From NCBI GenBank assembly GCA_027620445.1, contig JAQBYG010000002.1, forward strand, positions 1,130 to 65,129: DNA of 64,000 nt, in the 5' to 3' direction. The DNA comes from a bacterium (GTDB taxonomy: Bacteria; Patescibacteriota; Microgenomatia; UBA1400; PJMF01). Below, one piece after another: positions 2,926-43,223 of this stretch (the stretch's first letter is position 1; each line of letters starts with the position of its first letter). The position numbers and the translations under genes are program-made. Under the pieces are notes generated by a model. The model ran no database searches. It was not told the origin of the DNA and saw nothing but the letters and a program-made list of their open reading frames with translations.

Positions 2926-4182
2926 ATGCATATTTCTCACATAACCGCGTACGAAATAATAGCTTCCGGAGGCTACCCAACTCTCGAGGTGGAACTCACT
3001 CTTTCTGATGGTAGTACGGGAGTGGCCTCAGTCCCTTATGGTGCTTCGGCAGGATCACACGAAGCGACAGTCTTGGTTGATGGCGACAAAAAACGCTACA
3101 ACGGAAACGGGATGCTGACAGCTATCGATCATGTGGATGAAATTCTCAAACCTGTTTTGACCCAGCAAACATTTACAACCCAAGCAGAGCTCGATAAAAC
3201 CATGATTGGCATCGATGGTACTACCAATAAAAAGAAACTTGGTGGCAACACAATTCTCGCAATCTCTCTCGCGTACGCCAAAGCAGTGGCGAGTAGTCGC
3301 AAGCAACCGCTCTATACCTATATTCTTGAAGAATTCAAGTTACCAACCGTCCGCACGCTACCAAAACCAATGCTCGTCACGATCGAGGGAGGCAAACATG
3401 CAGACAACTCAACTGATCTACAAGAGTTCTGTCTTTCGGCGATGGGAAGCAAACCAACCCACGAACAGATCCGGGCGACACTCGAAACATATCATCAGGT
3501 GAAAAAGATTTTGCATAGTGAAGGCCTATCAACAAATGTCGGCAACGAAGGCGCCTTTGCACCGAGCGGTTTGCCATCAAATGAGAAACCACTCGAATAC
3601 TTAGTTGCAGCGATCAAGCAAGCCGGTTACGAGCCAGGCAAGGACATCGGCATCTCAATCGATGCGGCAGCAAGCGAGTACTACATTGATAAGACATATC
3701 ATCTGAAATTGGAAAAAACGAGTTACGACTCAAAACAAATGGTTGAGTATTACCGACCTTGGCTCGAGAAATATCCAATTGTTAGCTTTGAAGATATGCT
3801 GGACGAGGATGACTGGGACAACTGGCCAGCTATGCAGAAGCTTTGCGCTGAGTTTACTGTGCCGCTCATCGGCGATGACCTCACGGTCACCAATACCAAA
3901 CGACTGCAAAAAGCTATCGAACTTTCTGCAGTATCTGGAGTACTCGTGAAGTTAAATCAAATCGGCACGCTCACCGAAACAATCGAGTGCTGCAAACTTG
4001 CACAAAAACATAATTTGATGATCGTACCGTCCCATCGAGGTGGGGGAGAAACAAACGACACCAGTATGGTCGACGTCGCAGTGGCAGTTGGGGCCTCGTA
4101 TATCAAAGTCGGACCCACGCGTGGCGAACGAGTCTCAAAATATAACCGGCTCCTGGAGATAGAACGGGAAGCAACAGCCTAA
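2926..4182 (+). CDS. eno: Enolase (phosphopyruvate hydratase), paralog 1 (divergent)
   Basis: Enolase motifs are present (ISIDAAASEYY, IGDDLTVTN, KLNQIGTLTET, SHRGGGETND, KYNRLLEIE). The sequence has atypical substitutions, for example HRGGGET instead of HRSGET and FEDML instead of IEDPF. Confidence 0.8.
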   Translation: MHISHITAYEIIASGGYPTLEVELTLSDGSTGVASVPYGASAGSHEATVLVDGDKKRYNGNGMLTAIDHVDEILKPVLTQQTFTTQAELDKTMIGIDGTTNKKKLGGNTILAISLAYAKAVASSRKQPLYTYILEEFKLPTVRTLPKPMLVTIEGGKHADNSTDLQEFCLSAMGSKPTHEQIRATLETYHQVKKILHSEGLSTNVGNEGAFAPSGLPSNEKPLEYLVAAIKQAGYEPGKDIGISIDAAASEYYIDKTYHLKLEKTSYDSKQMVEYYRPWLEKYPIVSFEDMLDEDDWDNWPAMQKLCAEFTVPLIGDDLTVTNTKRLQKAIELSAVSGVLVKLNQIGTLTETIECCKLAQKHNLMIVPSHRGGGETNDTSMVDVAVAVGASYIKVGPTRGERVSKYNRLLEIEREATA

Positions 4183-15490: not shown

Positions 15491-15574
15491 GCCTCGGTGG
15501 CGGAATTGGTATACGCGTCAGACTTAAAATCTGATGGTCTTACGATCTTGTGGGTTCGAGTCCCACCCGAGGCA
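15491..15574 (+). tRNA. tRNA-Leu (anticodon UAA)
   Basis: Acceptor GCCUCGG/CCGAGGC, anticodon loop CUUAAAA, long variable arm (type II). Confidence 0.85.
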
Positions 15575-15575
15575 C

Positions 15576-16019
15576 ATGTTAGCAAAAAACACTCAAGAAC
15601 TACTTGCTATTTCAGTCTCTGATCAAGATGGAAGTGAGGTTAGTTTACAAAACCAACTCGGCCACTACACCGTCCTGTACTTTTACCCAAAAGACGACAC
15701 GCCGGGTTGCACCAAAGAAGCATGTAGCTTTCGCGATGCAGAGGCCGAGATGCAGAAACTTGGTGTAACAGTAATCGGCGTGAGTCCCGACAAACCAGCG
15801 TCACACCAGAAATTTCAGAAAAAATACTCACTATCGTTTCCACTCTGGTCTGATCCAGAACACAAACTAGCAGAAGCCTTTGGTGCTTGGGGAGGGAAAA
15901 TTTTGCGCTCAACATTTGTCATAGATCCGAAAGGAAAAATTGTGGCCGTCTGGCCAAAAGTAAAACCGGAAGCGCACGCCGAAGAAGTGCTAGAGTTTCT
16001 CAGGGAGAACTTGCTATAA
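15576..16019 (+). CDS. bcp: Peroxiredoxin Bcp (thiol peroxidase)
   Basis: YFYPKDDTPGCTKEACSFRD peroxidatic Cys motif. It starts 2 nt after tRNA-Leu; the ORF-track start at 15534 lies inside the tRNA. Confidence 0.85.
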   Translation: MLAKNTQELLAISVSDQDGSEVSLQNQLGHYTVLYFYPKDDTPGCTKEACSFRDAEAEMQKLGVTVIGVSPDKPASHQKFQKKYSLSFPLWSDPEHKLAEAFGAWGGKILRSTFVIDPKGKIVAVWPKVKPEAHAEEVLEFLRENLL

Positions 16020-16892: not shown

Positions 16893-17693
16893 ATGTTTCA
16901 GACCTACATCCGCAACTGGTATCTTCGCAACGGACGACATGAGCTGCCTTGGCGCCAAACGAGTGATCCATACCACATTCTCGTCTCAGAGCTAATGCTG
17001 CAACAGACGCAAGTCGAACGGGTTATTCCAAAGTATATGAGCTTCATACAAAAATTTCCTAACTTTGGGACGCTGGTCAAAGCAGAACAGGCAGAGGTGA
17101 TGCAGCTCTGGCAAGGACTTGGCTATAACCGACGAGCCAAGTATTTACACCAATGTGCGAAGCAAATAACGAATAAACCATTCCCAACGACGCTCACAGA
17201 GCTAGAGAAGCTACCTGGTATTGGTCCCTATACTGCGACTGCCATTTGTGCGTTTGCCTACAACCAACCCGTCACGATGATCGAGACCAATATCCGGACT
17301 GTCTTTTTGTATCACTTTTTTCCTGATCGAAGTGAGGTCAAGGATGTCGAGCTGTTGCCGCTCATCTGCGAAACACTTGATAACGACAATCCGCGCGAGT
17401 GGTACTGGGCACTGATGGATTATGGCTCGGTACTCAAAAAACTGACGGGCAACCACAATCGACGCAGTTCTAACTACACCAAACAGTCGAAGTTTGTTGG
17501 GTCTCTCAGACAAGTGCGCGGAGAAATTATTCGCTTGCTCACGCGGGCAACTGAGCTAACGGAAGCTGAGTTGCAAACGAAAATTACGGGCAACAAAACA
17601 CACTTTCCTGAGGCTTTTTTGCAGCTACAAAAAGAAGGTATGATACGCCATGGTAAAAAATCCGCGAACAGTCGGCTTGGGTGGCACCTTTGA
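16893..17693 (+). CDS. MutY/EndoIII-family HhH-GPD DNA glycosylase lacking the Fe-S cluster loop
   Basis: MutY-like N-terminus (LPWRQTSDPYHILVSELMLQQTQVERVIPKY) and HhH (LPGIGPYTATAI). The region where the Cys-X6-Cys-X2-Cys-X5-Cys motif would sit contains no Cys. There is no NUDIX C-domain. Confidence 0.65.
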   Translation: MFQTYIRNWYLRNGRHELPWRQTSDPYHILVSELMLQQTQVERVIPKYMSFIQKFPNFGTLVKAEQAEVMQLWQGLGYNRRAKYLHQCAKQITNKPFPTTLTELEKLPGIGPYTATAICAFAYNQPVTMIETNIRTVFLYHFFPDRSEVKDVELLPLICETLDNDNPREWYWALMDYGSVLKKLTGNHNRRSSNYTKQSKFVGSLRQVRGEIIRLLTRATELTEAELQTKITGNKTHFPEAFLQLQKEGMIRHGKKSANSRLGWHL

Positions 17694-18600
17694 CCATTTC
17701 CATCTGGGACATCAGAAATTAATTTCTCAAGCAAGTGAAGTGGGTGAGAAACTCTTAATTGGCGTCACAACTGATGCTTTTGCACGACAACTCGAAAAAC
17801 AGTTTTCCGAATCATTGGAGTCTTACGAATCTCGATCAGCCAGTGTTTCCCGATTCTGTGAAACTTGGGGGTTTGAGTTCGAAGTATTTCCGCTCGATGA
17901 TCCCTATGGGCCCACACTCACAGCAGACACCAAAGTACAGCTCATCTGTGTTTCTACCGATACCAAAAAAACCGCTGACAAACTAAATCACCTACGGGCT
18001 GCTGCAGGATTAACTGAACTACCGGTAGAGATAGTTTCACTTGTGCGATTGGAAAGTGGTGAAATCTTGAGCAGTACGCTCATCCGTCAGGGCAGAGCAA
18101 ATCGAGCTGGAGAACTCTACGAATCAGTTCTGACAAAACCACTCACACTCAGCGAGACACAACGGGCGTTCTTTGCAAAACCGCAAGGGGAGTTCGTCGA
18201 AGAACCAGTAACAGAAAATGGTTTGCGAATAGTGGTTGGTGACTCGTCACTACAGAGATTTATTGCGAATAACTGGAAGTACGATCTGGGCGTCTTTGAT
18301 TATCAAATTGGAAGAAAGCCCTACGATTCACCAGTAATTGCGGCTGAGAACATTGATATTATCGCTGCAAACCCAGCTGGAGCAATCTCAACACACCTCG
18401 TCAGAGTCCTCAAAACTGCCTTAGAGAAAAAGATGTGCAACGTGTTTGTAGAAGGAGAAGAGGACTTGGCAGCGGTAGCTCTAGTGTTACTCGCACCCCT
18501 TGAGGCGGAGATCTTCTATGGGCAGCCAGGCGATGGTCTCGTCTGCATCAGCTGTACCGAAGAAAAGAAGAACACAATTTATAAAATCCTGCTACAGTAG
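17650..18600 (+). CDS. Fused archaeal-type phosphopantetheine adenylyltransferase + DUF359 GTP-dependent dephospho-CoA kinase
   Basis: N-terminal GGTFDHFHLGH nucleotidyltransferase motif (archaeal PPAT type). The C-terminal half carries DUF359 hallmarks (GDSSLQ...PVIAAENIDIIAANPAGAIS...EGEEDLAAVALVLLAPLEAEIFYGQPGDGLV). Confidence 0.65.
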   Translation: MVKNPRTVGLGGTFDHFHLGHQKLISQASEVGEKLLIGVTTDAFARQLEKQFSESLESYESRSASVSRFCETWGFEFEVFPLDDPYGPTLTADTKVQLICVSTDTKKTADKLNHLRAAAGLTELPVEIVSLVRLESGEILSSTLIRQGRANRAGELYESVLTKPLTLSETQRAFFAKPQGEFVEEPVTENGLRIVVGDSSLQRFIANNWKYDLGVFDYQIGRKPYDSPVIAAENIDIIAANPAGAISTHLVRVLKTALEKKMCNVFVEGEEDLAAVALVLLAPLEAEIFYGQPGDGLVCISCTEEKKNTIYKILLQ

Positions 18601-19780
18601 TACTGTGCCACTCGCAGACATTCTTCGACCAACAAGCTTAGCTGAGTACCTTGGACAAAGCCACCTCGTCGGTCCAGGCAAACCCATCACCGAAGCTCTC
18701 AAAAAGGAACAGATGTTCTCGATGGTTTTCTGGGGTCCGCCTGGTGTCGGTAAAACAACGCTCGCTCGTATCATTGCCAGAGAGCAGCGTCGCGAGTTCT
18801 TTGAGCTCTCAGCTGTGTCTGCGGGGAAAGCTGACATACGAGAAATAATCGAGAACGAGCGGAAACAAAAACGATTCGACCAGCCAACCCTGTCACCGGT
18901 GTTATTTCTAGATGAAATTCACCGATTTAACAAAGCCCAACAAGATTTCTTACTGCCGTACGTAGAAACAGGTGAGTTGCTACTCATTGGCGCTACGACC
19001 GAAAATCCTAGTTTCGAAATTATCTCTGCCTTACTTTCGAGAACTAAAGTCTATATTTTAGAGCAGCTAACAGAAAGTGAGCTCAGACAAGTACTCAAGC
19101 GTGCGCAGGAGTACTGGAAGAAAACTGAGGGCAAGACAACAGCCATCGACAAGAAAACTGCTGATTGGCTGATTCAATTTGCCTCGGGCGACGCACGTAA
19201 ATTGCTCAATACGGTTGAGCATACTAAGGCAATTTATGATGCCATCAACATCGAGACTATAAAAACGAGTTTGCAAACCGCTACCCTTCGCTACGATAAA
19301 GCTGGAGAAGAACACTACGACACAATCAGCGCATTTATTAAATCGATGCGAGCAAGCAATGCCGATGCCGCTTTGTACTACTTAGCTCGCATGGTTCACG
19401 CCGGTGAGGATCCCAAGTTTATTGCCCGGAGGATGGTGATTTTTGCGAGTGAGGACATCGGACTAGCGGCACCTACTGCATTAGTCGTTGCCAACGCCGT
19501 CTTTCGTGCTGTGGAGTCGATCGGCTATCCAGAGGCACAAATCAATCTCGCCCACGGTGTCGCCTACCTCAGCAACTGTAAAAAGAACCGCTCGGCATAC
19601 GACGCATACTTTCGAGCGCTCGAGGATGTCAAGACACTCAGCAATCTCCCCATCCCGCTCAAGCTCAGGAACGCGCCAACAAAGCTCATGCAGTCAGCTG
19701 GCTATGGCAAAGGCTATAGTATGTACACCGATGACGATTTATTGCCAGAAAAACTTGGAAACAAAAAGTACTTCTCGTAG
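18500..19780 (+). CDS. rarA: Replication-associated recombination protein A (AAA+ ATPase RarA/MgsA)
   Basis: Walker A FWGPPGVGKTTLARIIA, Walker B VLFLDEIHRFNK, and the MgsA C-terminal domain. The true start is probably one of the internal Mets at 18518 or 18533. Confidence 0.85.
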   Translation: MRRRSSMGSQAMVSSASAVPKKRRTQFIKSCYSSTVPLADILRPTSLAEYLGQSHLVGPGKPITEALKKEQMFSMVFWGPPGVGKTTLARIIAREQRREFFELSAVSAGKADIREIIENERKQKRFDQPTLSPVLFLDEIHRFNKAQQDFLLPYVETGELLLIGATTENPSFEIISALLSRTKVYILEQLTESELRQVLKRAQEYWKKTEGKTTAIDKKTADWLIQFASGDARKLLNTVEHTKAIYDAINIETIKTSLQTATLRYDKAGEEHYDTISAFIKSMRASNADAALYYLARMVHAGEDPKFIARRMVIFASEDIGLAAPTALVVANAVFRAVESIGYPEAQINLAHGVAYLSNCKKNRSAYDAYFRALEDVKTLSNLPIPLKLRNAPTKLMQSAGYGKGYSMYTDDDLLPEKLGNKKYFS

Positions 19781-19821
19781 GCTGCTACAGTTCCTGTCAG
19801 AATCATTCGTAAACTTAAGTA

Positions 19822-21282
19822 GTGACTCCACAAGAAGCGCTGCAGTACTATTTTGGCCTTACAACATTCCGAGCACCTCAAGCAGAAATCATTCAGAGCA
19901 TTCTGTCTGGAAGTGACACGCTCGCGCTACTACCGACCGGAAGCGGCAAATCGCTCTGCTTTCAAATTCCTGCCTTGCTCTTACCACATCTGACCGTTGT
20001 CATATCGCCTCTAATTGCTTTGATGGAAGACCAAGTTGCCCATCTACAAGAGCGGGGGATTGCAGCAACATTTCTCTCGAGTCAACTCAGTACTGAGGAA
20101 CAAAGAACGCGATTAGATGAGGTGGCAGGGGGGAAGTGGAAGCTCTTATACTGCACACCAGAGCGTCTGCAACAAAAAGTTTTTCAAAATGTATTGGCAA
20201 GCTGTGGCATTTCTCAACTTGTAGTTGATGAAGCCCACTGCATCAGTGAGTGGGGACATGATTTCAGACCAGAGTATCGCATGATTCCAGAGGCGATTTC
20301 CTTTTGCAAAGTAAGACCAGTAGTGTCTGCATTCACTGCCACTGCAACCAAAAAAACGGTGGCTGATATTACCCAAAGTTTGCAGCAGGTCACTCCAAGA
20401 ATATTCTCACTGCCACCAATCAGAACAAACATCATGCTCAATGTGCTGCCGTGTGAGAACAAAACAGAAAAGTTGCTCCAGCTCATGCGATTGTTGCAAA
20501 GACATGGAGGAGAAACTGGAATAATCTATGTTGCTACGAGAGCAGCAACGTGGGAAGTGCTAGCCGAGCTCCAAGAAGTGCTTCCTTCCCAGGCAAAGAA
20601 CATGACAAACTACCATGGTGGGATGGAGTTCGATGAGCGAGCAAAAAAGCAGCAGATGTATATGAGTGGAAAAGTGCGGTTACTCATCGCCACAACTGCA
20701 TTTGGGATGGGAATTGATAAGACAAACGTGCGCTTTGTTATTCACTACCATCCCCCAGCGAGTATCGAACAGTACTATCAGGAAGTTGGCAGAGCAGGGC
20801 GCGACGGCAATCCATCTTTTGCCTATACGCTCCTCAGACAAAAAGATTTCAAAGTACTCGTGCAGATTCATCTTGCAAACAAAAGTGGTGAGTTGCTCGA
20901 ACATACACGGTGGAAGTTGCATCAGGTCATTCGACTATTGTACGGACAGAGTTGCAGCACAAAGAAGATTGCAAGGTACTTCTCACAGCCAGCACCGACA
21001 TCTTGCAACACTTGCGACCGTTGTGCAAAAAAATATCGGCAGGATCCTCTCCTGAGAACACTGGCAGAGAAGCGAACGAAAGAGCAGATACAAAAATTAC
21101 TGAAATGGAGAAGAGAGACAGGCAAGACGGAAGAGCAATATCAAATTGCCACAGATTTCCAACTGATGCTACTAGCACATTGTCAACCAAAAACCATCGA
21201 TGCATGCTGCAAGCTGCCTGGCTTTGGCAAAGGTTGGTGCGAACAGTTTTGGCAGACAATCCAGGCATACATGGTACAATAA
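19822..21282 (+). CDS. recQ: ATP-dependent DNA helicase RecQ (short form, no HRDC domain)
   Basis: Helicase motifs ([37 protein letters not shown]) and a Cys4 zinc motif (CSTKK...CNTCDRC). Confidence 0.85.
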
Positions 21283-21623: not shown

Positions 21624-23426
21624 TTACAATTTACAGTGTTGATATAACTTTCCATTTCGAAAGTGCCGTTTTTTATAGTATTCTTTTGTACCAATGGCTG
21701 AAATTACAGCCAGATTTTTGTATCCATGTTCAGTAGCAACTTTTTTTGCTTCTTCTAACAGCTCGCTGCCCAACCCAATGTGTTGAGATTTTCCAGTATT
21801 TTTCTCTCCCATAGAAACCAGCTGACCATACACATGTAGTTCGCGAATAACTGCTGAGCTGCCAAGCTCGGTAATAAAAGATGGGTCTTCTGGCAGAGAT
21901 AATCGCAAAAATGCGGCGATCTTGTTTTCCTTAGTAACATGCTGCATGAAGACTTCTATGCCAACACTCGTTTTATAGCACAACGTTTTCAGCACTACTT
22001 CTTCTCGTTTCACAGAATTTTCACGAATTTCACGAGCTCTAATGTCCGACTGGATTAAACTCTTTTCCTCAACAGAGCGTGTCGCAATTTCACGAAAGTT
22101 GGTTTTCTTGTTTCCCACCACAATATCCTGGGATGGGATGTCCCTGATTACCCGAGTCAGACGAGAGTACTCCGGGGTATGCGTGAGCGCGTGTGCAACT
22201 ACACTCAGGAGTTCGCTATCTGAGTAGGGCTTCCACAAACCTTGCTTGTGATACTTCGAAAGCTCCGCACTGCTTACGAGAGAACAAGGATACACCTTCA
22301 GTTCGTCAGGACAAAAATCTGGGTCTGAAAATAATTGATCAAAGTCTTCGATATCTTGCTCAACAGATGAACCATACAAATTTGCCATCCAGTGCGCGTG
22401 AATCTTGAACCCTGCTGAGCGGAGCAAACGAAATGCCCTGCGTGTTGCTGCGACATCGTGACCACGATTGTTTTTCTTCAGCACCGAGTCTTGCAGTGAC
22501 TGCACGCCAATTTGTGTCTTGGTACAACCAAGTCTGCGCACTCGAATTACCTCCTCCTCAGAGATTGAGTCTGGTCTCGTCTCGATTACCAAACCAACGT
22601 TTCTGATCTCTGCCGTTTCATTTAGTTTTTGTTCTCGTTCTAACTCTTCCCAGCTCGCTGTTTGGTATACATCGAATCCACCAATTTTCTCTGGGGCTAC
22701 ATAGAGTTCAGAGACGGTTTTGTTGTAGGACTTTTTCAGATCTGCCCCGTCGATCTCAAACTTTTTGAACTCCAATTTATTTTTCTTTGGATCAGAGCTC
22801 AGTGCAGTTCGTAACTTCGACTCTAAGTTTTTGTACTGCTCTAGGACTGCTGAGGATGTGTCCGTCCCAACAGAAAATTCATTGAGTGCGCGGAAACACT
22901 CTTTGATAAACCAAATCTGATACTGTTCTGGATAAAAAGACCAGGTTCCCCCCAAAATAATCAACTCCGCTTTGGAAACATCATGACCAATTGTTTTAAG
23001 AGCGGTTAGACGACTGTAGGTCTGTAAATACGGGTCAAAATAATTGCGTTCAGCTCGCTGTGCACCTGGCTCGTCTGCCAAGTAGCTCTTTGGCATACGC
23101 ACATCATTGGGACAAAAAATACACTTGCCTGGACAGGGAAATGGTTTCGTCAAAACAGTGATCGGAGCCACACCAGACATCGTGCGAGTCGGTTTTTTGA
23201 GCAACAGTGAAAACATGCTTTTTGAAGCCACCAACTCGTCATTGTCTATCAAGAAATGTTTGTAGCCCGCTAATATTTCTGACTGAGAAAATACTCCACC
23301 GTTCTGCTTTGTGAACTTTTTTTTGTACTTTTCAATTTGTAGCCTGTTGAGATTACTATCAGCAAGCAAAACCGCGAGTAATCGAGAAAGTTGCTCTGCT
23401 TCGCTGGTATACTGTGTTCCTGGCAT
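21624..23426 (-). CDS. Elp3-like radical-SAM / GNAT acetyltransferase (tRNA wobble-uridine carboxymethylation family)
   Basis: Radical-SAM Cys cluster (PFPCPGKCIFCPND), about 600 aa. The C-terminal GNAT fold (LGSELLEEAKKVATEHGYKNLAVISAIG) matches the Elp3 architecture. Confidence 0.65.
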   Translation of the reverse strand: MPGTQYTSEAEQLSRLLAVLLADSNLNRLQIEKYKKKFTKQNGGVFSQSEILAGYKHFLIDNDELVASKSMFSLLLKKPTRTMSGVAPITVLTKPFPCPGKCIFCPNDVRMPKSYLADEPGAQRAERNYFDPYLQTYSRLTALKTIGHDVSKAELIILGGTWSFYPEQYQIWFIKECFRALNEFSVGTDTSSAVLEQYKNLESKLRTALSSDPKKNKLEFKKFEIDGADLKKSYNKTVSELYVAPEKIGGFDVYQTASWEELEREQKLNETAEIRNVGLVIETRPDSISEEEVIRVRRLGCTKTQIGVQSLQDSVLKKNNRGHDVAATRRAFRLLRSAGFKIHAHWMANLYGSSVEQDIEDFDQLFSDPDFCPDELKVYPCSLVSSAELSKYHKQGLWKPYSDSELLSVVAHALTHTPEYSRLTRVIRDIPSQDIVVGNKKTNFREIATRSVEEKSLIQSDIRAREIRENSVKREEVVLKTLCYKTSVGIEVFMQHVTKENKIAAFLRLSLPEDPSFITELGSSAVIRELHVYGQLVSMGEKNTGKSQHIGLGSELLEEAKKVATEHGYKNLAVISAIGTKEYYKKRHFRNGKLYQHCKL

Positions 23427-24232: not shown

Positions 24233-25780
24233 ATGCGACTCGTGCTCTCACTACTACTCGTTTCACTTTCTATCATCGGAATTGCTGACTCAGGGTATAT
24301 CAGCTGGAACGAATGGCAACAAATTATTCCAGAATGCGGTGCTGGTTTTGATTGTGGCACAGTCCTCTCTAGCCAATGGGCGCGCATCGGACCAGTGCCG
24401 CTCGCTTACATCGGGCTCATCTATTACATAACAGCATTTGCGCTCAGCATCCTCCATGTTGTCGATTTAGAAGCTGGATCAATCACAAAAAAATTACAAC
24501 GCTTCAAAGCAACCCCAATAGAGCTTCTCTGGTTGCTCACCCTCTTTGGTTTTGTTTTTTCGCTGTATTTAATTTGGATCATGGCATTTGCGATAGGAGA
24601 GTGGTGTAAGTACTGTCTCATTTCGGCGGCGACCTCTTCCAGTCTTTTCTTGCTTTCGAGCATATATCTCAAAACTACTCTCAAACATCCGGCATACTGC
24701 ATCCGCACCCTCCTACAAAAAAAGTTCGGTTTTCTGTATCGACATATTGTTAAACCTATCTTCTTTCTGTTTGATGCGGAGTTTATTCATACCAGCATGC
24801 TCAAGACTGGTGAGTCTCTAGGAAAATCAGCTATAGGAAAAACACTTCTGCGACACTGTTTCTCCGTGCAACACCAGAGTCTGCAAACGACAAAAGCAGG
24901 CATATCGTTCCCGAATAAAGTCGGTCTCTCAGCGGGCTTCGATTACAACGGACAACTCACTGGGATTTTACCTTCAGTTGGCTTTGGTTGGCACACCATC
25001 GGAACGGTGACACTGGAACCGTACGAGGGCAACAAAAAACCACGTCTCGGAAGGTTCCCCAACTCCAAAGCATTGCTGGTAAACAAAGGTCTTAAAAACC
25101 TAGGCGCTCGAAGAATCATCGCTAATCTCGAGAATCAGCACTTTGCAATCCCCACGGGCATCAGCATCGCCAGTACTAACAAACACTTTGACTCAACCAA
25201 ACAGCAGATGCTCGATATCGTTGAGTGCTTTTGGCTCTTTGATCACTCTCGAGTTGGCCATGCCTTCTATGAAATGAACATCAGCTGCCCCAACACCTTT
25301 GAGGGCGAGCCATTCACCACACCTGATCGGCTGGAGTTGTTGCTATCAGCATTAGATCAACTGCAACTGTCAAAACCGGTATTCGTAAAAATGCTGATTG
25401 ATCAAGGAGAGCAAGAAACGAGAGCCCTTCTCACTGTGACTGCCAAACATAACACGGCCGGCGTTATTTTCGGCAACCTCACCAAAAATAAAGAAAGCTC
25501 TGTCATGACTGCGGAGGATCGAGAGCAATGGAAAAAGATGCGCGGCAATATCAGTGGCAAACCAACTTGGGAACAATCGAACAAGCATATCGCACTCACT
25601 AAAAAAGAATTTGGCAATCGCTTTGTCATTATTGGCACTGGTGGAATATTTTCTGCCGCAGATGCGGCCGAAAAAATTCGCTTAGGCGCTGATCTCGTCC
25701 AGCTTATCACCGGGATGGTTTTCCAAGGACCCCAACTTATCGGTGAAATCAATTTGGACCAATGCTACAATACCCGTTGA
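24233..25780 (+). CDS. Fusion protein: N-terminal VKOR (vitamin K epoxide reductase) membrane domain + class-2-like dihydroorotate dehydrogenase
   Basis: VKOR hallmarks: loop Cys pair ECGAGFDCG, TM helices and CXXC (GEWCKYC). DHODH hallmarks: IGTVTLEPYEGNKKPRLGRF, NKGLKNLG, MNISCPNT (a Cys where class 2 has Ser) and GTGGIFSAADAAEKIRLGADLVQLITGMVFQGP. Confidence 0.75.
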   Translation: MRLVLSLLLVSLSIIGIADSGYISWNEWQQIIPECGAGFDCGTVLSSQWARIGPVPLAYIGLIYYITAFALSILHVVDLEAGSITKKLQRFKATPIELLWLLTLFGFVFSLYLIWIMAFAIGEWCKYCLISAATSSSLFLLSSIYLKTTLKHPAYCIRTLLQKKFGFLYRHIVKPIFFLFDAEFIHTSMLKTGESLGKSAIGKTLLRHCFSVQHQSLQTTKAGISFPNKVGLSAGFDYNGQLTGILPSVGFGWHTIGTVTLEPYEGNKKPRLGRFPNSKALLVNKGLKNLGARRIIANLENQHFAIPTGISIASTNKHFDSTKQQMLDIVECFWLFDHSRVGHAFYEMNISCPNTFEGEPFTTPDRLELLLSALDQLQLSKPVFVKMLIDQGEQETRALLTVTAKHNTAGVIFGNLTKNKESSVMTAEDREQWKKMRGNISGKPTWEQSNKHIALTKKEFGNRFVIIGTGGIFSAADAAEKIRLGADLVQLITGMVFQGPQLIGEINLDQCYNTR

Positions 25781-31569: not shown

Positions 31570-33243
31570 TCACAGTTTTTCGAAAATAATGAATCGTTTG
31601 TTGCCATTTGGATAATCGATTTCATGAATTTTAGTGATTTTCGATTCTGCTAGAGTTCCGCCATTTACATCAAGGCAAATTGCGTTGGCAAAATACAAGA
31701 CAGCATCTTGAAGTACATCTGTCTCTGGACAACTCGCGACATCAAACAAATAGTTATCAAATCCATAGTTTCTTCTATTTTCCTCAGTAGCAAAAATGTT
31801 CGAAGGTCGAGTATCTGCCAAAGCCTGTACTCGTCTGGGATCTACTTTGCGATAAAAAAAGTAGAAAATGTCAGGTGCCTCATCGAAACCAAAAACGTGC
31901 ACTCGAATGTACCGTGACTCTACTGTGGATAAAAATGAATATGCTTCTTTATAACCATAATCTCGAGCTAAAATTGTTTCATACTGCGTATGCACGTGAT
32001 ATTGGTTGAGGAAGTAGCCAAATGACCACAGGCACGTCAAAGCAATTGGCAGTAACAACAAGCGACCAAACCTCACTTGCCTCAACCACGAAACTGAAAG
32101 GTATATGCCCTCGGCGATGAAAACATACAGTGGCAAGTATAAAAACATGCTTCGCTTTACATGTGGAAAGGCGGTTGTTGTGAGAACGGCGGGCAGTATC
32201 GCAATACTGATCCAGCCTAGCAAGAGCAAGCGTTGGCGTTGTGTAAAACGAGTTGACACAAATATGCCCAGCAACAAAAATGGTGCAAAAAACGGCAACA
32301 ACTGTCCAGCTCCAGGTACTTCATACCTACCTGGTTTCCCAGCAGAAAAGAACAAAAAATTGCTACTCAAAAACGTGCCTGCATTTCCTATTGTTTGCGT
32401 TGTTAGAGACGCAAGCTTATTGTGAAAAATTCGTGATACCAGAATAGGGACATGCATATTTCCCTCACGAAAAAAATATTCCTGACCGATCGGTTGGGCA
32501 TTTGTAAAAATACTATTGCCTGCAAAATTATCTCCAGCCCCAGGAATTATGTAAACGCTAGCAAATGAAATTATCACGAACACGATGCCAAAAGATACTA
32601 TATGCAACTTTTTTCTGATATCTTTCCACCAATACCATGTGAGTAGCAACTGCAGCAGTGGCAATGCAAGCTTAACCCCGTTGTAGCTAAAAAGTGCCCC
32701 AGCATACAACAATCCAATAATCAACATAACTTTTGTCTTTGGCTTCTTGACCCATTCTGACCACAACAACCACGCCAACAAAGCAAACGCTAATGCAACA
32801 ACGGCTTCACTACCAGAACGCGACTGTACCAGATCCCAAGGAGAAATTGTAACAATTGCAGCTACCACTAAGCCGAGCTCGGTACTTCGAAACAACTTTC
32901 TCACCCAAAGAAAAGAAAGTGGAATTAAGAGTGTTCCGAATACAATTGCTGGCCAACGCTCAGCTAACTCACTCAACCCAAAAACGGGAATTGAAGCTGC
33001 AACCAGGTAATTGTAAAAGGCGGGAGGATAATCACCCAAAGCTTTAGTATGAAGTGGGAGTAGCTGTCCCCAATCATCCCTGCCTGTTTGCAATATGCTA
33101 TAGGCACTATAGGCAATGCCTGCTTCATCACGATGAAAACCAGCAGGAATACTCGGCTGCCCAACAAATCGAAGTAGAAAACCAACCAGTACGAAGGCTG
33201 TGAGAATGAGATACCTATTGTTGACCGAGGCAAGCATTTTCAT
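31570..33243 (-). CDS. GT-C glycosyltransferase, PMT/ArnT (GT39/GT83)-like, paralog A
   Basis: HRDEAG DE-motif in loop 1 after TM1 and about 12 TM segments; 557 aa. Confidence 0.65.
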   Translation of the reverse strand: MKMLASVNNRYLILTAFVLVGFLLRFVGQPSIPAGFHRDEAGIAYSAYSILQTGRDDWGQLLPLHTKALGDYPPAFYNYLVAASIPVFGLSELAERWPAIVFGTLLIPLSFLWVRKLFRSTELGLVVAAIVTISPWDLVQSRSGSEAVVALAFALLAWLLWSEWVKKPKTKVMLIIGLLYAGALFSYNGVKLALPLLQLLLTWYWWKDIRKKLHIVSFGIVFVIISFASVYIIPGAGDNFAGNSIFTNAQPIGQEYFFREGNMHVPILVSRIFHNKLASLTTQTIGNAGTFLSSNFLFFSAGKPGRYEVPGAGQLLPFFAPFLLLGIFVSTRFTQRQRLLLLGWISIAILPAVLTTTAFPHVKRSMFLYLPLYVFIAEGIYLSVSWLRQVRFGRLLLLPIALTCLWSFGYFLNQYHVHTQYETILARDYGYKEAYSFLSTVESRYIRVHVFGFDEAPDIFYFFYRKVDPRRVQALADTRPSNIFATEENRRNYGFDNYLFDVASCPETDVLQDAVLYFANAICLDVNGGTLAESKITKIHEIDYPNGNKRFIIFEKL

Positions 33244-34976
33244 GTTACTTTTTTAAGATCTGTAATCCACTGTTTACAGAAGACTTCCTCACTGAGAGTA
33301 TGCAAGCGAAATTGATCTAAGCTCGAAACCTGTATGAATGTACCTAAATCATACTGTCCACAAACCTTATCATTGAGGATTTCATAGACACTTCCACTAT
33401 CCTTCAGCGCGGGAATGGTAATTTTATTCGCATCTGCAGAAAATTCTGTCAACGCTCTACAACGATCACGAATCGCTTCTGTGACACCCAAAGTTATTCC
33501 ATCGTCGTCATCAACACAGGTATTTTGAAATCTAATGTTATCAAAAGTATATGTCCCAGCGCGAAACGAATCTGAGATCTGTCCAACTGTGTCCTGTGAA
33601 ACTGAGCCCGAGTGCAATAGATAGCTAGAGAATAATATCGGAGGGTCAATGGTGTAGACGACTATCTGCTCGTCTGGATAGCTCTCTCTCGCCCAACCGA
33701 TGTATTGCGCCAGCACCCGTTCTTGAAAGAATCCTGCATCGGCTCCCATGACAGGGTAACGCACAAAGTATTGACTGGCAAAATTGAGTACTGATAGAGC
33801 ATAGAGTAGAACTAACACCCATCGAAATCTCGACTGCCACCAGACAAAAGCACCCCAACTGATTACCAACAACAGTAAAGTATAAGCAAAAAATGAACGC
33901 AATAAGTACCACTCGCTCGTCAGGTTAATAATTACCGGAACTGCAAAAAAGGGTAGTGCAAGTAGAAAGCTTAATCCAATAACCCGAGTCTTCTTCCGTT
34001 GGAGTGCACCAATACCAATCAGCAGTAACGCAATATCTAAGAGGTAAAACAACCCATGACTCCAAACAGCAAACCCACTCGCAGACGGCTCAGAATTGAG
34101 AAATAACAAATGAGGTGAAAATGAATTGAGCAACTTGTCAGCAGACAATTGAATGAGCGCAGTCACTTTATTGGAGAAAAGAGGCGCAATCGGCAATTGC
34201 AAAGCTTTGCGTCTCTGATCATTCGCTATTTCGCTAAGCACAGATTGATCTTGCAACAAAGTTCCTTCAAGGCGGCCATCAACATCTTGGTTCGGTAACA
34301 TAAAAAGCAAGTAGGCCAGGAGCAAAACCACAGAGGCAACAAGAGGAACAATGCGCAACTTCCACGACTCCTTTTTGTGCTGCAAGAGCCAAATGAATGT
34401 GAGCAGTGCCAACCAAGGTACGAGCAGTAATTTGAAACCCTGGTACTGAAAAAATCCTACAGCAAAAACTGGAATAGACCATAAAAATCCTCGCTTCGTG
34501 TTCGAAAAGAACAACGCGCCTCCAAGAAAGTAAAAGAAGGTTGAGTAAACTGCATCGTAGGAAAGCCTACTAAACTGCCACCAAAGAGGGTTTAGCGAAG
34601 CAATTACTGCCGCAATCCAAGCTAATGTTTTATCGCGCCAAATTCCCCAACAAAACCAACCAAAGACGAAGGGAAAAACAATACCCATGAGTGCAGTTGG
34701 TATTCTCACCGCCAGCAACGGATTGTCGGTAACCCAAAAAAGCGGTGTCATAAAAAGAGCTGGCAGCTCTGCATAAAAGGGATGAACCGGTCGCATGCTG
34801 TACCATGCCTGATCTTGTGTGAGTGTCGTACCTTGAACAGCAAAAGACTTAGCAACAATGCCATATACCACCTCATCATGTGTCAAAAAGGGTGGCAAAG
34901 TATCGAGCGATATAAACCTTGTGAGGAATAAGAACAAGAGAATTACTGCCAAAAATAATTTGTTTTTCTGTAACAT
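33240..34976 (-). CDS. GT-C glycosyltransferase, PMT/ArnT (GT39/GT83)-like, paralog B
   Basis: THDEVVYG DE-motif, polytopic N-terminal half plus a soluble C-terminal domain; 578 aa. Confidence 0.65.
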   Translation of the reverse strand: MLQKNKLFLAVILLFLFLTRFISLDTLPPFLTHDEVVYGIVAKSFAVQGTTLTQDQAWYSMRPVHPFYAELPALFMTPLFWVTDNPLLAVRIPTALMGIVFPFVFGWFCWGIWRDKTLAWIAAVIASLNPLWWQFSRLSYDAVYSTFFYFLGGALFFSNTKRGFLWSIPVFAVGFFQYQGFKLLLVPWLALLTFIWLLQHKKESWKLRIVPLVASVVLLLAYLLFMLPNQDVDGRLEGTLLQDQSVLSEIANDQRRKALQLPIAPLFSNKVTALIQLSADKLLNSFSPHLLFLNSEPSASGFAVWSHGLFYLLDIALLLIGIGALQRKKTRVIGLSFLLALPFFAVPVIINLTSEWYLLRSFFAYTLLLLVISWGAFVWWQSRFRWVLVLLYALSVLNFASQYFVRYPVMGADAGFFQERVLAQYIGWARESYPDEQIVVYTIDPPILFSSYLLHSGSVSQDTVGQISDSFRAGTYTFDNIRFQNTCVDDDDGITLGVTEAIRDRCRALTEFSADANKITIPALKDSGSVYEILNDKVCGQYDLGTFIQVSSLDQFRLHTLSEEVFCKQWITDLKKVT

Positions 34977-35009
34977 TGATACCGTATACTATAGTCCGTC
35001 AAACCGATT

Positions 35010-36407
35010 ATGCCTACTCACTTTTTCAAACAATTGCAAAAAAACTGGTATGTAGTTTCACTCAGTCTTGCACTCATACTCATTTGTCTCACCCGAGTTT
35101 ATAAATTAGACGTATATCCCAGAGGTTTTTTTGTTGATGAGTCCTCGGTTGCATATAATGCACTCAGTATTGCGCTCACAGGAAAAGACGAGTACGGCAT
35201 TCCTTTTCCAGTCTACTTCAAAGCATTTGGTGAGTACAAAAACCCAATACTCATCTACTCCCAGGCACTCCTATACTCCTTTGTTCCTGCGACGATTTAC
35301 ACCGCACGACTCGCACCAGCTCTCTGGGGACTCGCTTTTATTATCCTAACCTGGATCTATACCAAAGGGGAGTCTACCAACCTACGACTGATCAAAACAA
35401 TACTAGTTGCTACCACCCCCTGGCTCTTTCATCTAAGTCGTGTGGACTTTGAAGTGATCGTCTTTCCCACGCTAGTGCTAGCAAGCTTGCTTCCTCTGAG
35501 ACGCTTCTTTTCAAAGCGCAAATCAAGAGACTGGCTTCTTTTTGTTCTAATCATTTCTATATCATTCTATAGCTATACCGCTGCACGATTGCTTGCACCA
35601 CTCATTCTCATTCTGGCTGGAGCAATCACCCTCTTGGCACAAAAGCGAGCAGCTCTCAAACCAATACTACTCGGAATAGTGCTCTCTATACTTATCATAA
35701 CTCCTGCAATAATTTGGAATTATTACTACCCTAATAGCTTGCTCGCTCGCTACGAACTCGTAGGCAAAAGTGATGCACCAATAGCAAGGCAACTCAAAAG
35801 TATTGTGTCAAGATATCGCGAGCACACAAGACTTTCATACCTCTTTGAGGTAGGGGACAATAACTTGCGCCACAGTACTGGCAAAGGTCTGTTGCCGCTG
35901 ATTTCTCTGCCATTATTTCTAATTGGACTAACCCAGTTCTGGCAGAAAAGAAAACATCCCTACAACTGGTTTATCTTGGGAGGTCTTTTACTCAGCCCAC
36001 TACCTGCAGCCATGACATGGGATGATGTTCCGCATGCATTGCGGTCAATTCTCTTTGTCGTTTTCTTTTTACTTGTCGTGTTTGCAGGGCTCGATTGGAC
36101 TATCAAACTGAAACAGGGAAAGCGTTGGTTGACTGTCACTACAATAATAATTTTTGCCGAGTTCTTCAGTTACTGGTCACAGTACCGAGCTGTGTATCAA
36201 ACAACCAACTATAAGTGGTTTTTTGTTGGAGATCTTGAAAAGATAACCGAACTGTATGAGCAAAAGCAAGACTTTGAAATTGAGGAGACGACATTCTTTG
36301 GCACGTATGCCACTGTAGCATTTATCTACCACTACCCACCCGAGTTATTTCAGCGAACAAAACAGGGACACAAAACAGAGCGAATTGAATTTATAGAAAA
36401 TAACTGA
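35010..36407 (+). CDS. GT-C glycosyltransferase, PMT/ArnT (GT39/GT83)-like, paralog C
   Basis: FFVDESSVAYN DE-motif; polytopic; 465 aa. Confidence 0.65.
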   Translation: MPTHFFKQLQKNWYVVSLSLALILICLTRVYKLDVYPRGFFVDESSVAYNALSIALTGKDEYGIPFPVYFKAFGEYKNPILIYSQALLYSFVPATIYTARLAPALWGLAFIILTWIYTKGESTNLRLIKTILVATTPWLFHLSRVDFEVIVFPTLVLASLLPLRRFFSKRKSRDWLLFVLIISISFYSYTAARLLAPLILILAGAITLLAQKRAALKPILLGIVLSILIITPAIIWNYYYPNSLLARYELVGKSDAPIARQLKSIVSRYREHTRLSYLFEVGDNNLRHSTGKGLLPLISLPLFLIGLTQFWQKRKHPYNWFILGGLLLSPLPAAMTWDDVPHALRSILFVVFFLLVVFAGLDWTIKLKQGKRWLTVTTIIIFAEFFSYWSQYRAVYQTTNYKWFFVGDLEKITELYEQKQDFEIEETTFFGTYATVAFIYHYPPELFQRTKQGHKTERIEFIENN

Positions 36408-36478
36408 GCGAGAAACGGGGTTCGAACCCGCGGCCTCTTCCTTGGCAAGGAAGCGCTCTACCACTGAGCTATTCTCGC
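36407..36478 (-). tRNA. tRNA-Gly (anticodon GCC)
   Basis: Acceptor GCGAGAA/UUCUCGC, anticodon loop UUGCCAA, T-loop UUCGAAC. Confidence 0.85.
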
Positions 36479-36695
36479 GCGTCGCTATTGTACAACGAGC
36501 TGGTGTATACTCAAAGTATGAGCATGAAATCATATCTTTCGTCGCCAGATTTTAACCGCAGAGCAGGCTATGCCGGGCAAGACACCGCCAAATTTTTGGG
36601 GAAAACGCTTGGGATAATCATCGCTGAAACTGCGAAATTTATAAAAGAACTTCTCATGAGCATGCTGGGCAAAAGGTAAGCACAAAGAAACTTTG

Positions 36696-36768
36696 TGCCA
36701 AGCTCAGGAATCGAACCTGAATTTCATGTTTTTCAGACATGCGCCGTGACCGACTTGGCTAGCTTGGC
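36696..36768 (-). tRNA. tRNA-Phe (anticodon GAA)
   Basis: Acceptor GCCAAGC/GCUUGGC, anticodon loop CUGAAAA, T-loop UUCGAUU. Confidence 0.8.
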
Positions 36769-36772
36769 ACTG

Positions 36773-36846
36773 TGGACGCTGAGGGATTCGAACCCCCGAC
36801 ACCCGCGATGTAAACGCGGTGCTCTAACCAGCTGAGCTAAGCGTCC
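36773..36846 (-). tRNA. tRNA-Val (anticodon UAC)
   Basis: Acceptor GGACGCU/AGCGUCC, anticodon loop UUUACAU, T-loop UUCGAAU. Confidence 0.85.
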
Positions 36847-36863
36847 GATTCTCTCATCGTCTG

Positions 36864-36944
36864 TGCCCGGGAGAGGACTTGAACCTCCACACCTTTCGGC
36901 ATACGCACCTCAAGCGTACGTGTATACCATTTCACCACCCGGGC
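36864..36944 (-). tRNA. tRNA-Leu (anticodon GAG)
   Basis: Acceptor GCCCGGG/CCCGGGC, anticodon loop UUGAGGU, long variable arm. Confidence 0.8.
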
Positions 36945-36967
36945 TCAAATAGCATTATATAACATTG

Positions 36968-37050
36968 TGCCGAAGAGAGGAGTCGAACCTCCATCCCGCA
37001 AGCGGGACACGCTCCTGAAGCGTGCGCGTCTACCATTCCGCCACTTCGGC
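36968..37050 (-). tRNA. tRNA-Leu (anticodon CAG)
   Basis: Acceptor GCCGAAG/CUUCGGC, anticodon loop UUCAGGA, long variable arm. Confidence 0.8.
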
Positions 37051-37833: not shown

Positions 37834-37907
37834 GCACCCGTAGCTCAATTGGATAGAGCGTCTGTCTTCGGAACAGAAGGTTGTGAGTTCGATTCTCGCC
37901 GGGTGCA
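37834..37907 (+). tRNA. tRNA-Arg (anticodon UCG)
   Basis: Acceptor GCACCCG/CGGGUGC, anticodon loop CUUCGGA, T-loop UUCGAUU. Confidence 0.75.
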
Positions 37908-37912
37908 CACGT

Positions 37913-37986
37913 GGGCCAGTAGCTCAGTTGGTTAGAGCAATTGCCTCTTAAGCAATGTGTCCCGGGTTCGAGTCCCGGCTGGCTCA
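37913..37986 (+). tRNA. tRNA-Lys (anticodon CUU)
   Basis: Acceptor GGGCCAG/CUGGCUC, anticodon loop CUCUUAA, T-loop UUCGAGU. Confidence 0.8.
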
Positions 37987-37993
37987 CAAAAAT

Positions 37994-38710
37994 ATGCTAA
38001 ATAATATAAAATGGATATTGCTTTCTGTTCTGTACTTTATTTTCTCTTTCGCCGTTCTCATTACGAATTTCCTAACAATAGCATATGTTATTTTTGTGTT
38101 GGAAATTAATGTCGGCATACCGTTTTGGAATTACTTCCCCACAGCATTCTTTTTTGTGAATGGAGCAATCTTCTTAGCAATTGAGCTTGTTTATCTATTT
38201 TTATTACTACGCGTGCAGGTTGAGGCACAAAAGCATTCCGACATAATACTTAGTAAATTTGAGAAAGTACTTCCAATACTAATTTGGCCTTTTTTTGCTT
38301 GTTTGGTATTTTTTCTGGCAGAGACTTTTGATATACGAGACCTGAAACTGCTATTTTTAATTGGGTATATTTCTGTTTTTTTCACTCATATAACTATCAG
38401 GTACAAGGCAAAACAACTTAAAATATTGCTACTCGCAGGTATCTTAATCGTATCCTCAGAGCTGGTATATTGGTCAATTCGTCTAGCTACTTTCCCAGAA
38501 TGCAGAACCTCTTATGACGTTCCCATTCTGTCTGGGCAACACAGTGTTGAATGCAAAACTGCACCTCGTTTTAACCGAAAAACAATGGAGTTAGTTGTGG
38601 AACAAGTTGCTTCACTTCGCCAGTTACTCTATCCCGCTATAGTTTGTTTTGCATTGACTTTCCCACTAAAAAAAGCAAAAAAGAAGATGGTCGCTAACAA
38701 CCCGATCTAA
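37994..38710 (+). CDS. Hypothetical polytopic membrane protein (AT-rich)
   Basis: Several hydrophobic helices and no recognisable domain. Start moved to 37994 because the ORF-track start lies inside tRNA-Lys. Local GC about 33%. Confidence 0.35.
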   Translation: MLNNIKWILLSVLYFIFSFAVLITNFLTIAYVIFVLEINVGIPFWNYFPTAFFFVNGAIFLAIELVYLFLLLRVQVEAQKHSDIILSKFEKVLPILIWPFFACLVFFLAETFDIRDLKLLFLIGYISVFFTHITIRYKAKQLKILLLAGILIVSSELVYWSIRLATFPECRTSYDVPILSGQHSVECKTAPRFNRKTMELVVEQVASLRQLLYPAIVCFALTFPLKKAKKKMVANNPI

Positions 38711-40672: not shown

Positions 40673-41584
40673 TCATTGCGATTCATTCGGCCGGCGATGA
40701 TTCAAAAACATCAGCAGTGCGCCAGCTAGGATTCCTAAGGGTATGGTTACCTTGGCAATACTGCTTAGTTCAACAAAAGACTCCTCAGCAGCTTGACGCA
40801 CTTCGGGTTCGAGAGTAATCGGATAAGTTAGAGCTGCTGCGATCCGTGTCCGTTTTCGTATCTGATACAGATTTCCAAGGATGCCTAGAGCCCCTGTTAT
40901 AAATACCGTCGGCATTTCTATCCCAAGCATTTTAAGTCTTGGAAAGAGACCCCTAAAGAGATTCTCCAGCACTCTATATATCTGGGTGCCTGGAAATCCA
41001 AGCAAGTCTCCGGCTTGTTTTGCTTCTGCTTTTCCTTTTGACTTGATATGCGCATTAACAAGACTTGGACCTGGATCACTGAGGACTTGCAGCATATACA
41101 TTACAATAATAAAGAACAACTTATTCTTATTTTTTTCTTGAAAAAATTCACGAAGAACAACTCCAAATTGACTGAGGGAAATTGATTCTCTGTCTCGCCT
41201 AGTGTCTAGCTTCAGACCTTCGCTTTCATCTCTGGTAATTTCTCCCCGTTTGCAAGCTCGCGCTGCTGCTCCATCAAAGGTGTCAGCGCCAGCAATAGCT
41301 AACCCAAGTAGAAATAACAGACATCTCTGTTTATTTGTCAGATCTTTGTGCTGACGTGCATACTCAACCAAGCAGGCGTCAAATAAAACTTTGGCCGCAA
41401 ACCCCGCATTCGTAATATCGTTGGGAAAATTCTTTTTATCTGGGTAGATTATAAGCAACTGAGCAGCGGTGAGATTTGCTATCCAAGTGACGACTGAGAC
41501 AACAAAATCGAGCGCATTTTTTGCTGCATTTTTTTCTTTTTCACCCCCACCGCTTGGAGACTCAGCACGCTCTACCATCAGCAC
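40673..41584 (-). CDS. Polytopic membrane protein with partial CDP-alcohol phosphatidyltransferase motif
   Basis: Five or more hydrophobic helices. DTFDGAAAR fits the DxxDGxxAR signature, but the downstream G/D spacing is imperfect. Confidence 0.35.
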   Translation of the reverse strand: MLMVERAESPSGGGEKEKNAAKNALDFVVSVVTWIANLTAAQLLIIYPDKKNFPNDITNAGFAAKVLFDACLVEYARQHKDLTNKQRCLLFLLGLAIAGADTFDGAAARACKRGEITRDESEGLKLDTRRDRESISLSQFGVVLREFFQEKNKNKLFFIIVMYMLQVLSDPGPSLVNAHIKSKGKAEAKQAGDLLGFPGTQIYRVLENLFRGLFPRLKMLGIEMPTVFITGALGILGNLYQIRKRTRIAAALTYPITLEPEVRQAAEESFVELSSIAKVTIPLGILAGALLMFLNHRRPNESQ

Positions 41585-43145: not shown

Positions 43146-43223
43146 CTTAATACTTATAGGATATCATTTTTTCGGGTTATTGTCCAGATACACCCACCTT
43201 TGGTATACTGTACCCTCCGACTC

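Follow-up and report, generated by a model that had tools for sequence, protein, structure and literature searches.

Fusions of a pantetheine-phosphate adenylyltransferase (PPAT) with a domain of arCOG04076 (DUF359) occur in many uncultured archaea, for example in AIF21550.1 of marine group II/III Euryarchaeota, and in 2019 they were the clue to the archaeal dephospho-CoA kinase (DPCK), a family which iterative PSI-BLAST placed in archaea only (PMC6650551). The DUF359 family PF04019 serves as an archaeal single-copy marker in CheckM (PMC8421398, PMC10134863). Here we describe a gene of the same architecture in a bacterium. The DNA analysed, referred to below as the window, is a stretch of 64,000 nucleotides from contig JAQBYG010000002.1 (assembly GCA_027620445.1, Patescibacteriota), and the gene in question occupies positions 17650..18600 of its + strand, with an ATG start, 316 codons for amino acids and a stop codon at 18598-18600. 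Taking all of the evidence together, the best explanation, to which we give a probability of about 0.8, is a bifunctional coenzyme A (CoA) synthase built from archaeal-type parts, inherited vertically within its lineage and most likely derived from an ancient archaeal source.

In the proposed mechanism the N-terminal PPAT would combine 4'-phosphopantetheine and ATP to form dephospho-CoA and the C-terminal DUF359 domain would phosphorylate the 3'-OH of this product to give CoA, the two domains forming one rigid body. By analogy with TK1697 of Thermococcus kodakarensis the phosphate donor is probably GTP. The gene would be a housekeeping gene, passed on vertically, and its host a Pacebacteria-like bacterium that belongs to the Patescibacteria within the candidate phyla radiation (CPR).

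Domains and conserved residues of the fused protein

The N-terminal half of the protein contains a PPAT domain of the archaeal/eukaryotic type at residues 6-158 (17665..18123, + strand), a range matched by the NCBIfam model for archaeal-type pantetheine-phosphate adenylyltransferase (NF001985) with 130.5 bits against a cutoff of 104. The Pfam family PF01467 (CTP_transf_like), a search for which had been proposed in a first-pass annotation made from the DNA letters, matches residues 11-147 with 53.1 bits against a cutoff of 21, and the model of bacterial CoaD, TIGR01510, gives only 16.7 bits against its cutoff of 103. The best sequence match of this half in the PDB is the PPAT of Archaeoglobus fulgidus, 3do8 (phmmer, E 2.5e-18). 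In order to compare folds we used an AlphaFold2 model of the whole fusion built with 31 homologues (predicted local distance difference test score 93.9, predicted template modelling (TM) score 0.86), for which the top structures in Foldseek were 8jvc, discussed below, and 3do8, the latter with an E of 2.5e-9 and a target-normalised TM of 0.81-0.86, followed by bacterial CoaD structures at E ~1e-6. The nucleotide-binding motif GGTFDHFHLGH lies at residues 11-21 (17680..17712, + strand), as the first-pass annotation had read from the letters, with the HxGH element H18...H21 at 17701-17712, and a second nucleotidyltransferase motif of the ISSTxxR type is seen as SSTLIR at residues 141-146 (18070..18087, + strand), which pairs with ISSTRIK of 3do8. 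When 250 fused homologues are aligned, G12, D15, H18 and G20 are unchanged throughout, H21 is kept in 248 and R146, the arginine of the second motif, in 247.

The C-terminal half, residues 163-316 (18136..18597, + strand), is a dephospho-CoA kinase domain of the DUF359 type. PF04019 matches residues 204-314 with 84 bits against a cutoff of 25, covering profile positions 5-122 of 126, the best NCBIfam model for this half is that of the Thermococcales GTP-dependent dephospho-CoA kinase (NF041125), and full-length TK1697 aligns from its first residues on to residues ~164-316. The GTP-dependent DPCK of T. kodakarensis (8jvc) is the best PDB match by sequence (phmmer, E 9.8e-14), and it is matched by the structural model in Foldseek with an E of 1.5e-12, a target-normalised TM of 0.74 and 30% identity. 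Mutation of Asp48, Asp67 or Asp125 in TK1697 impaired complementation (Shimosaka et al. 2019, PMC6650551). In the alignment to 8jvc these catalytic residues correspond to D198 in a VGD motif (18241..18243), D217 (18298..18300) and D272 (18463-18465), the last within a GEEDLA motif (18454..18471), all on the + strand, and each of the three is unchanged in all 250 fused homologues. The YGQPGDG motif of DUF359, conserved in the Thermococcales DPCKs also, follows at 18517..18537 (+ strand), so that the DUF359 blocks to which the earlier reading had pointed, GEEDLAAVALVLLAP...YGQPGDG, span residues 269-296. G197, G269 and G291 show no substitution in the 250 sequences, E270 and Y290 are kept in 249 of them and Q292 in 243. 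The Pfam and NCBIfam tables for the fusion protein list neither a thiamine pyrophosphokinase family nor CoaE (PF01121), to which no similarity was seen.

The PPAT domain is followed directly, from about residue 163 on, by the kinase domain, with practically no linker. Among the fused homologues, pairs that are more alike in one half tend to be more alike in the other (Spearman 0.59 between the pairwise identities of the two halves), as would be expected if the halves have been inherited together. With both domains above their cutoffs and the catalytic residues intact, the principal proposal of the first-pass annotation, that an archaeal-type PPAT and a DUF359 DPCK are joined in one bacterial gene, holds.

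Distribution and gene neighbourhood

A scan with one genome per GTDB species found relatives of the fusion in at least 224 genomes, the best 80 of which are Pacebacteria, Levybacteria, Roizmanbacteria, Gottesmanbacteria, Woesebacteria, Cerribacteria and metagenome-assembled genomes (MAGs) of the 'Patescibacteria group'. Close homologues that carry names are labelled Candidatus Pacebacteria or Patescibacteria, the NCBI phylum being Minisyncoccota. At 90% identity the family comprises 279 clusters, nearly all of them two-domain. We also ran a mixed CPR/archaeal profile with HMMER against 1.84 billion representatives (50% identity), which returned 6599 matches, 1118 of them at E < 1e-30, a number in which fused proteins and single-domain archaeal proteins are mixed. 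The top 150 of the 6599 matches are all fused and ~310-350 aa long, and every one of these that could be placed is bacterial. Four fused homologues, namely the two nearest to the archaeal enzymes and two of the most divergent from the named CPR loci, were inspected in their genomic surroundings, and all four lie in bacterial contexts (NusG-L11-L1-L10-L7/L12, GreA, VanW). The content of the window is likewise bacterial, with EF-P, LexA, UvrA/UvrB, the delta subunit of DNA polymerase III and glycolytic enzymes, and together with the CPR relatives elsewhere this bears out the earlier view that the host is a bacterium. The restriction of DUF359 to archaea, as described in 2019 and as assumed in the CheckM archaeal marker set, is therefore not upheld, since genomes of at least 224 GTDB species carry the gene in bacterial surroundings, and the archaeal restriction is a property of the family's description and not of the enzyme.

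Several carrier MAGs bear unexpected organism labels in NCBI, such as 'uncultured Pseudomonadales/Gammaproteobacteria', 'Vitreimonas sp.', 'Limisphaerales' and 'Methylococcaceae' (seven of the related loci and others). At least three of these odd-label loci share a Pacebacteria-type neighbourhood and one isolate name includes 'PATE', and because of this the NCBI labels of these MAGs look wrong.

The protein identical to our gene product is named 'MAG: pantetheine-phosphate adenylyltransferase [bacterium]' in NCBI, where its contig measures 67 kb, and across the family the public names in NCBI and JGI give PPAT only or 'PPAT/UPF0218'. A Shine-Dalgarno-like AGAAGG is read at 17633..17638 (+ strand), 11 nt 5' of the ATG, where it may act as the ribosome-binding site. 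The upstream neighbour is an HhH-GPD (MutY/Nth-like) DNA glycosylase gene by Pfam (16893..17693, + strand), and the 3' end of its open reading frame (ORF) shares 44 nt with the 5' end of the fusion, so the 5' overlap with a mutY-like gene given in the first-pass annotation is present at the ORF level; in one relative the glycosylase ends 11 nt ahead of the fusion. The 3' overlap with rarA that had been reported alongside it is a different matter. It stems solely from the longest-ORF start of rarA, a TTG at 18500 (18500-18604), and a GTG at 18605 would give the RarA N-terminus (M)PLADILRPTSLAEYLGQSHLVGP, to be compared with MKPLAAQLRPTTLDEFMGQSHLVGP in the annotated RarA of the same relative. 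Because N-terminus and length both agree with that relative, the true start of rarA/mgsA (18605..19780, + strand, by Pfam) is probably GTG 18605, 4 nt past the fusion stop codon, and the overlap is probably a longest-ORF artefact. No promoter-like or terminator-like sites were predicted on the + strand in 16893-21282, which holds the glycosylase, the fusion, rarA and recQ, and these four genes look like a single tightly packed + strand array.

Of 82 loci, 29-34 keep the order fusion-rarA-recQ-(MazG-like)-Elp3, with protein identities of 36-64%, one of them on a 1.41 Mb contig (43% identity), and the Pacebacteria-like clade keeps the order glycosylase-fusion-rarA-recQ...Elp3. As immediate neighbours the glycosylase is found upstream in 16 and rarA downstream in 29 of the 82 loci. 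The Elp3 gene of the window (21624..23426, - strand) encodes a radical-SAM/GNAT tRNA U34 enzyme (TIGR01211, 478.7 bits against a cutoff of 350), lies ~3 kb downstream of the fusion and is near the fusion in 29 of the 82 loci. Elp3 is typically archaeal or eukaryotic and consumes acetyl-CoA, and a functional tie between it and the fusion may be envisaged. In composition the fusion does not stand out from its surroundings, with a GC content of 46.3%, where genes of the window average 45.5 +/- 2.9%, and a codon usage that is the 8th nearest to the pool among 37 genes.

The family falls into three sub-clades, each with its own conserved gene context. The Levybacteria-like context (13 loci) reads SBP_bac_1-(294-aa protein)-fusion-GreA. 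The SBP_bac_1 solute-binding gene is found 5' of the fusion and on the same strand in twelve loci and in a non-adjacent position in a further one, and the intervening 294-aa protein, present in seven loci, has just a faint match to a Pol-beta nucleotidyltransferase. No permease lies adjacent to SBP_bac_1 in the Levybacteria-like loci, and an uptake reading was not built on this gene. The Roizmanbacteria-like context (6-7 loci) consists of NadE and an NMN adenylyltransferase (NMNAT) next to the fusion. The NMNAT is of the archaeal type and is either fused to the PPAT-DPCK or encoded just 5' of it (three proteins and seven loci), with three-domain NMNAT-PPAT-DPCK proteins of 489-523 aa and NadE divergently upstream in 6 loci. 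NadE, NMNAT and the fusion thus make up a cluster of last-step NAD and CoA enzymes in this sub-clade. Clustering of the neighbours across the loci, aimed at a conserved transporter or an upstream CoA gene, identified no CoA-pathway partner, and the cluster of ABC-ATPases is heterogeneous. We also considered a functional link of the fusion to its DNA-repair neighbours (glycosylase, rarA, recQ) and rejected it, as other clades have wholly different neighbours; being clade-specific, the repair genes carry no functional meaning here.

A number of other features of the window may be recorded. An ORF at 24233-25780 (+ strand) fuses an N-terminal VKOR (PF07884) to a quinone-dependent dihydroorotate dehydrogenase (PF01180; NF003652, 258 bits), an odd pairing for an organism expected to be without a respiratory chain. 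The longest ORF of a peroxiredoxin (AhpC/TSA) and a tRNA gene on the same strand overlap (15491-15574 and 15534-16019), so the true start of the peroxiredoxin must be further downstream. There are two full-length enolase paralogues (2926-4182 and 50566-51861, both on the + strand), the second in a glycolytic cluster with a PfkB kinase, PGI and iPGM. Four segments (33240-36407, 37955-38710, 40673-41584 and 42129-43886) hold ORFs of 228-578 aa with no Pfam match at E < 1e-4, and these ORFs lie on either side of tRNA genes clustered at 36407-37050 (- strand) and 37834-37986 (+ strand).

Function, substrate supply and origin

The organism clearly needs CoA. Within the window the CoA users are Elp3 and two GNAT-type acetyltransferases, and the metabolism of a complete Microgenomates genome depends on pyruvate:ferredoxin oxidoreductase and acetyl-CoA synthetase (PMC7143001). 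According to one survey enzymes leading from pantothenate to CoA are present in some Microgenomatia. No gene for PanK, CoaBC, a CoaD-type or a CoaE-type enzyme was found within the 64 kb window, and CoaBC, CoaD and CoaE were likewise not found in the 10 kb on either side of the fusion at 81 related loci, in which PanK was not searched. The latter result comes from tblastn with E. coli CoaBC, CoaD and CoaE as seeds over the window and the 81 loci, 1.28 Mb that represent a small fraction of each genome and hence a weak negative, and it gave just weak HxGH-motif matches to the fusion itself and to the adjacent NMNAT genes. As a separate observation, the window encodes a PduO-type cob(I)alamin adenosyltransferase (PF01923; 54248-54814, - strand) and a CofE-like gamma-glutamyl ligase (55818-56576, - strand; TIGR04132 'putative folate metabolism gamma-glutamate ligase', 226 bits and thus under the cutoff of 350), which are further cofactor-finishing enzymes amid sparse biosynthesis.

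Several points weigh against the overall reading and temper it. The activities of the bacterial members are predicted from sequence and fold, and GTP stands as the probable donor only by analogy. Both halves fall well short of the Thermococcales models, as expected for a distant lineage, the PPAT equivalog giving 73 bits where 290 are required and NF041125 giving 71 where 300 are required; neither match certifies orthology. NF041125 is an order-specific model, and to miss it tells little about the function of a bacterial homologue. In the organism's own genome canonical CoaD and CoaE were searched for in the 64 kb window only, and the direction of transfer from archaea to CPR is drawn from distribution alone. 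A simple uptake story is weakened because, in a statement of PMC12570885 that cites Jackowski and Rock 1984, E. coli is reported to have no uptake of 4'-phosphopantetheine.

With these points taken into account, we consider the core assignment of a bifunctional CoA synthase, as judged from sequence and the structural model, to be well supported and highly probable. It is conceivable that the role in CoA synthesis is confined to the PPAT half and that the DUF359 half is another small-molecule kinase, a pyrophosphokinase or a regulatory module, in line with the distant relationship of DUF359 to thiamine pyrophosphokinase, the public names that mention PPAT only or 'UPF0218' and the missed DPCK equivalog cutoff. 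We regard this as very improbable: sequence and fold both point specifically to DUF359 and 8jvc, the three mutagenised Asp and the GEEDLA and YGQP motifs are conserved across the 250 homologues, the thiamine pyrophosphokinase families are missing from the Pfam and NCBIfam tables, and fusion with the enzyme that acts one step earlier in the pathway is the very argument that correctly predicted the archaeal DPCK. Where a CoA synthase of this kind would obtain its substrate is a separate matter, and two accounts that leave the enzyme function the same have to be set against each other. In one, a complete in-cell pathway, PanK and CoaBC encoded elsewhere in the genome would make 4'-phosphopantetheine from pantothenate with no need for salvage, for which speak the reported inability of E. 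coli to import this compound and the limit of 64 kb on inspection of the organism's own genome. In the other the organism would depend on salvage. CPR genomes are generally without cofactor biosynthesis, PanK and CoaBC are missing from the window and CoaBC from the surroundings of the 81 loci, and the Roizmanbacteria-like fusion is joined or adjacent to NMNAT, another last-step enzyme of the salvage type, all of which count against the complete pathway. We hold the complete pathway to be a real contender that nevertheless falls short of an even chance, and obligate salvage of 4'-phosphopantetheine to be similarly tentative. The stronger version, in which Microgenomates-group CPR have replaced or never had CoaD and CoaE and rely solely on the fusion fed by 4'-phosphopantetheine or pantetheine from host bacteria, which are known to excrete it, is doubtful. 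If true, it would, together with the fused or adjacent NMNAT, describe a strategy of finishing cofactors from host leftovers and a concrete nutrient dependency that is testable and usable for CPR cultivation.

As to origin, the first-pass annotation had called the module horizontally acquired, which does not stand as a recent event in this genome: recent transfer is excluded by the native composition, the conserved synteny and the occurrence of the gene in no fewer than 224 species-level genomes. The nearest characterised relatives of both domains are archaeal, which could also be taken to mean that the contig is archaeal, contaminated or chimeric, or the gene a late arrival; with bacterial genes flanking the fusion on both sides, native GC and codon usage, and the same neighbourhood in 29-34 independent assemblies at 36-64% identity, we find any such account extremely unlikely. 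For the fusion gene itself an ancient archaeal origin is rather likely, although with a good deal less assurance than we attach to its function; most likely the gene was fused in archaea first and passed in that form, long ago, to an ancestor of the Microgenomates-group CPR. This is favoured because DUF359 is near-universal and standalone in archaea, where arCOG04076 belongs to the pan-archaeal core (454 of 524 genomes, PMC6393860), and among bacteria was seen in Patescibacteria only. CPR clades that keep an archaeal-like GEEDLxx(I/L)P motif are the nearest to archaeal enzymes, at 35-41% identity, and the clade of the window, with GEEDLAAVA and 32-34% identity, looks the more derived in sequence. 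The opposite course, that the gene is no archaeal import and that the fusion or both domains came down from a common ancestor and were lost in other bacteria, or that a fusion born in CPR moved to uncultured archaea, could draw on the size and depth of the bacterial family, if one bears in mind that the 1118 representatives at E < 1e-30 include single-domain archaeal proteins, and on the three sub-clades with their separate conserved contexts. Set against the archaeal distribution of DUF359, its confinement to Patescibacteria among the bacteria seen and the higher identity of the GEEDLxx(I/L)P clades to archaeal enzymes, it appears improbable. A chimeric query made of the A. fulgidus PPAT and the T. 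kodakarensis DPCK recovered single-domain proteins of Thermococcales and Archaeoglobales only, with no archaeal fused sequence among them. Woesearchaeota and several Parvarchaeales (DPANN) are without PF04019 (PMC8421398, PMC10134863) and these groups are for that reason unlikely donors.

Comparison with known CoA-forming systems

The presence of PF04019 in CPR genomes bears on gene sharing between archaea and CPR and on marker-based quality estimates of mixed bins, since a family so widely present in CPR bacteria is not domain-specific. A large uncultivated bacterial radiation gains a concrete route to CoA of which standard annotation covers the PPAT half only, and the fusion offers a first bacterial setting in which the GTP dependence of DUF359 kinases could be tested. 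A full-text literature search found no published description of the fusion or of the DUF359 family in bacteria or CPR.

Compared with the archaeal enzymes of known structure, 8jvc (TK1697) and TK2128 / A. fulgidus PPAT (3do8), the protein described here has ~30-35% identity and the same fold, and it keeps the counterparts of D48, D67 and D125 as well as GEEDLA, YGQP, HxGH and ISSTxxR. In T. kodakarensis the two enzymes are encoded by separate genes, whereas in our protein one follows the other with hardly any linker, and the archaeal GEEDLAAIP is replaced by GEEDLAAVA in this clade. Eukaryotic COASY is also a bifunctional PPAT and DPCK, with a PPAT of the same archaeal/eukaryotic type, but its kinase is a P-loop homologue of CoaE and unrelated to the Rossmann-like, thiamine-pyrophosphokinase-related DUF359 domain, which makes it a functional analogue. 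Bacterial CoaD and CoaE catalyse the same two reactions from separate genes. The earlier statement that both are unrelated to the archaeal pair is correct for CoaE against DUF359 and does not extend to CoaD, because CoaD and this PPAT belong to one nucleotidyltransferase superfamily (PF01467), CoaD being a distant homologue of the N-terminal domain (Foldseek E ~1e-6, target-normalised TM ~0.63). The closest likeness is to the fusions of uncultured archaea, compared by domain content only, in which the same two domains share one polypeptide to which the last two steps of CoA synthesis are assigned, the hosts there being archaea and here Patescibacteria. As the fusion architecture is already known from archaea the novelty is taxonomic: two enzymes that had been taken for an archaeal pair are encoded, within one bacterial phylum, by a housekeeping gene that is widespread and passed on vertically.

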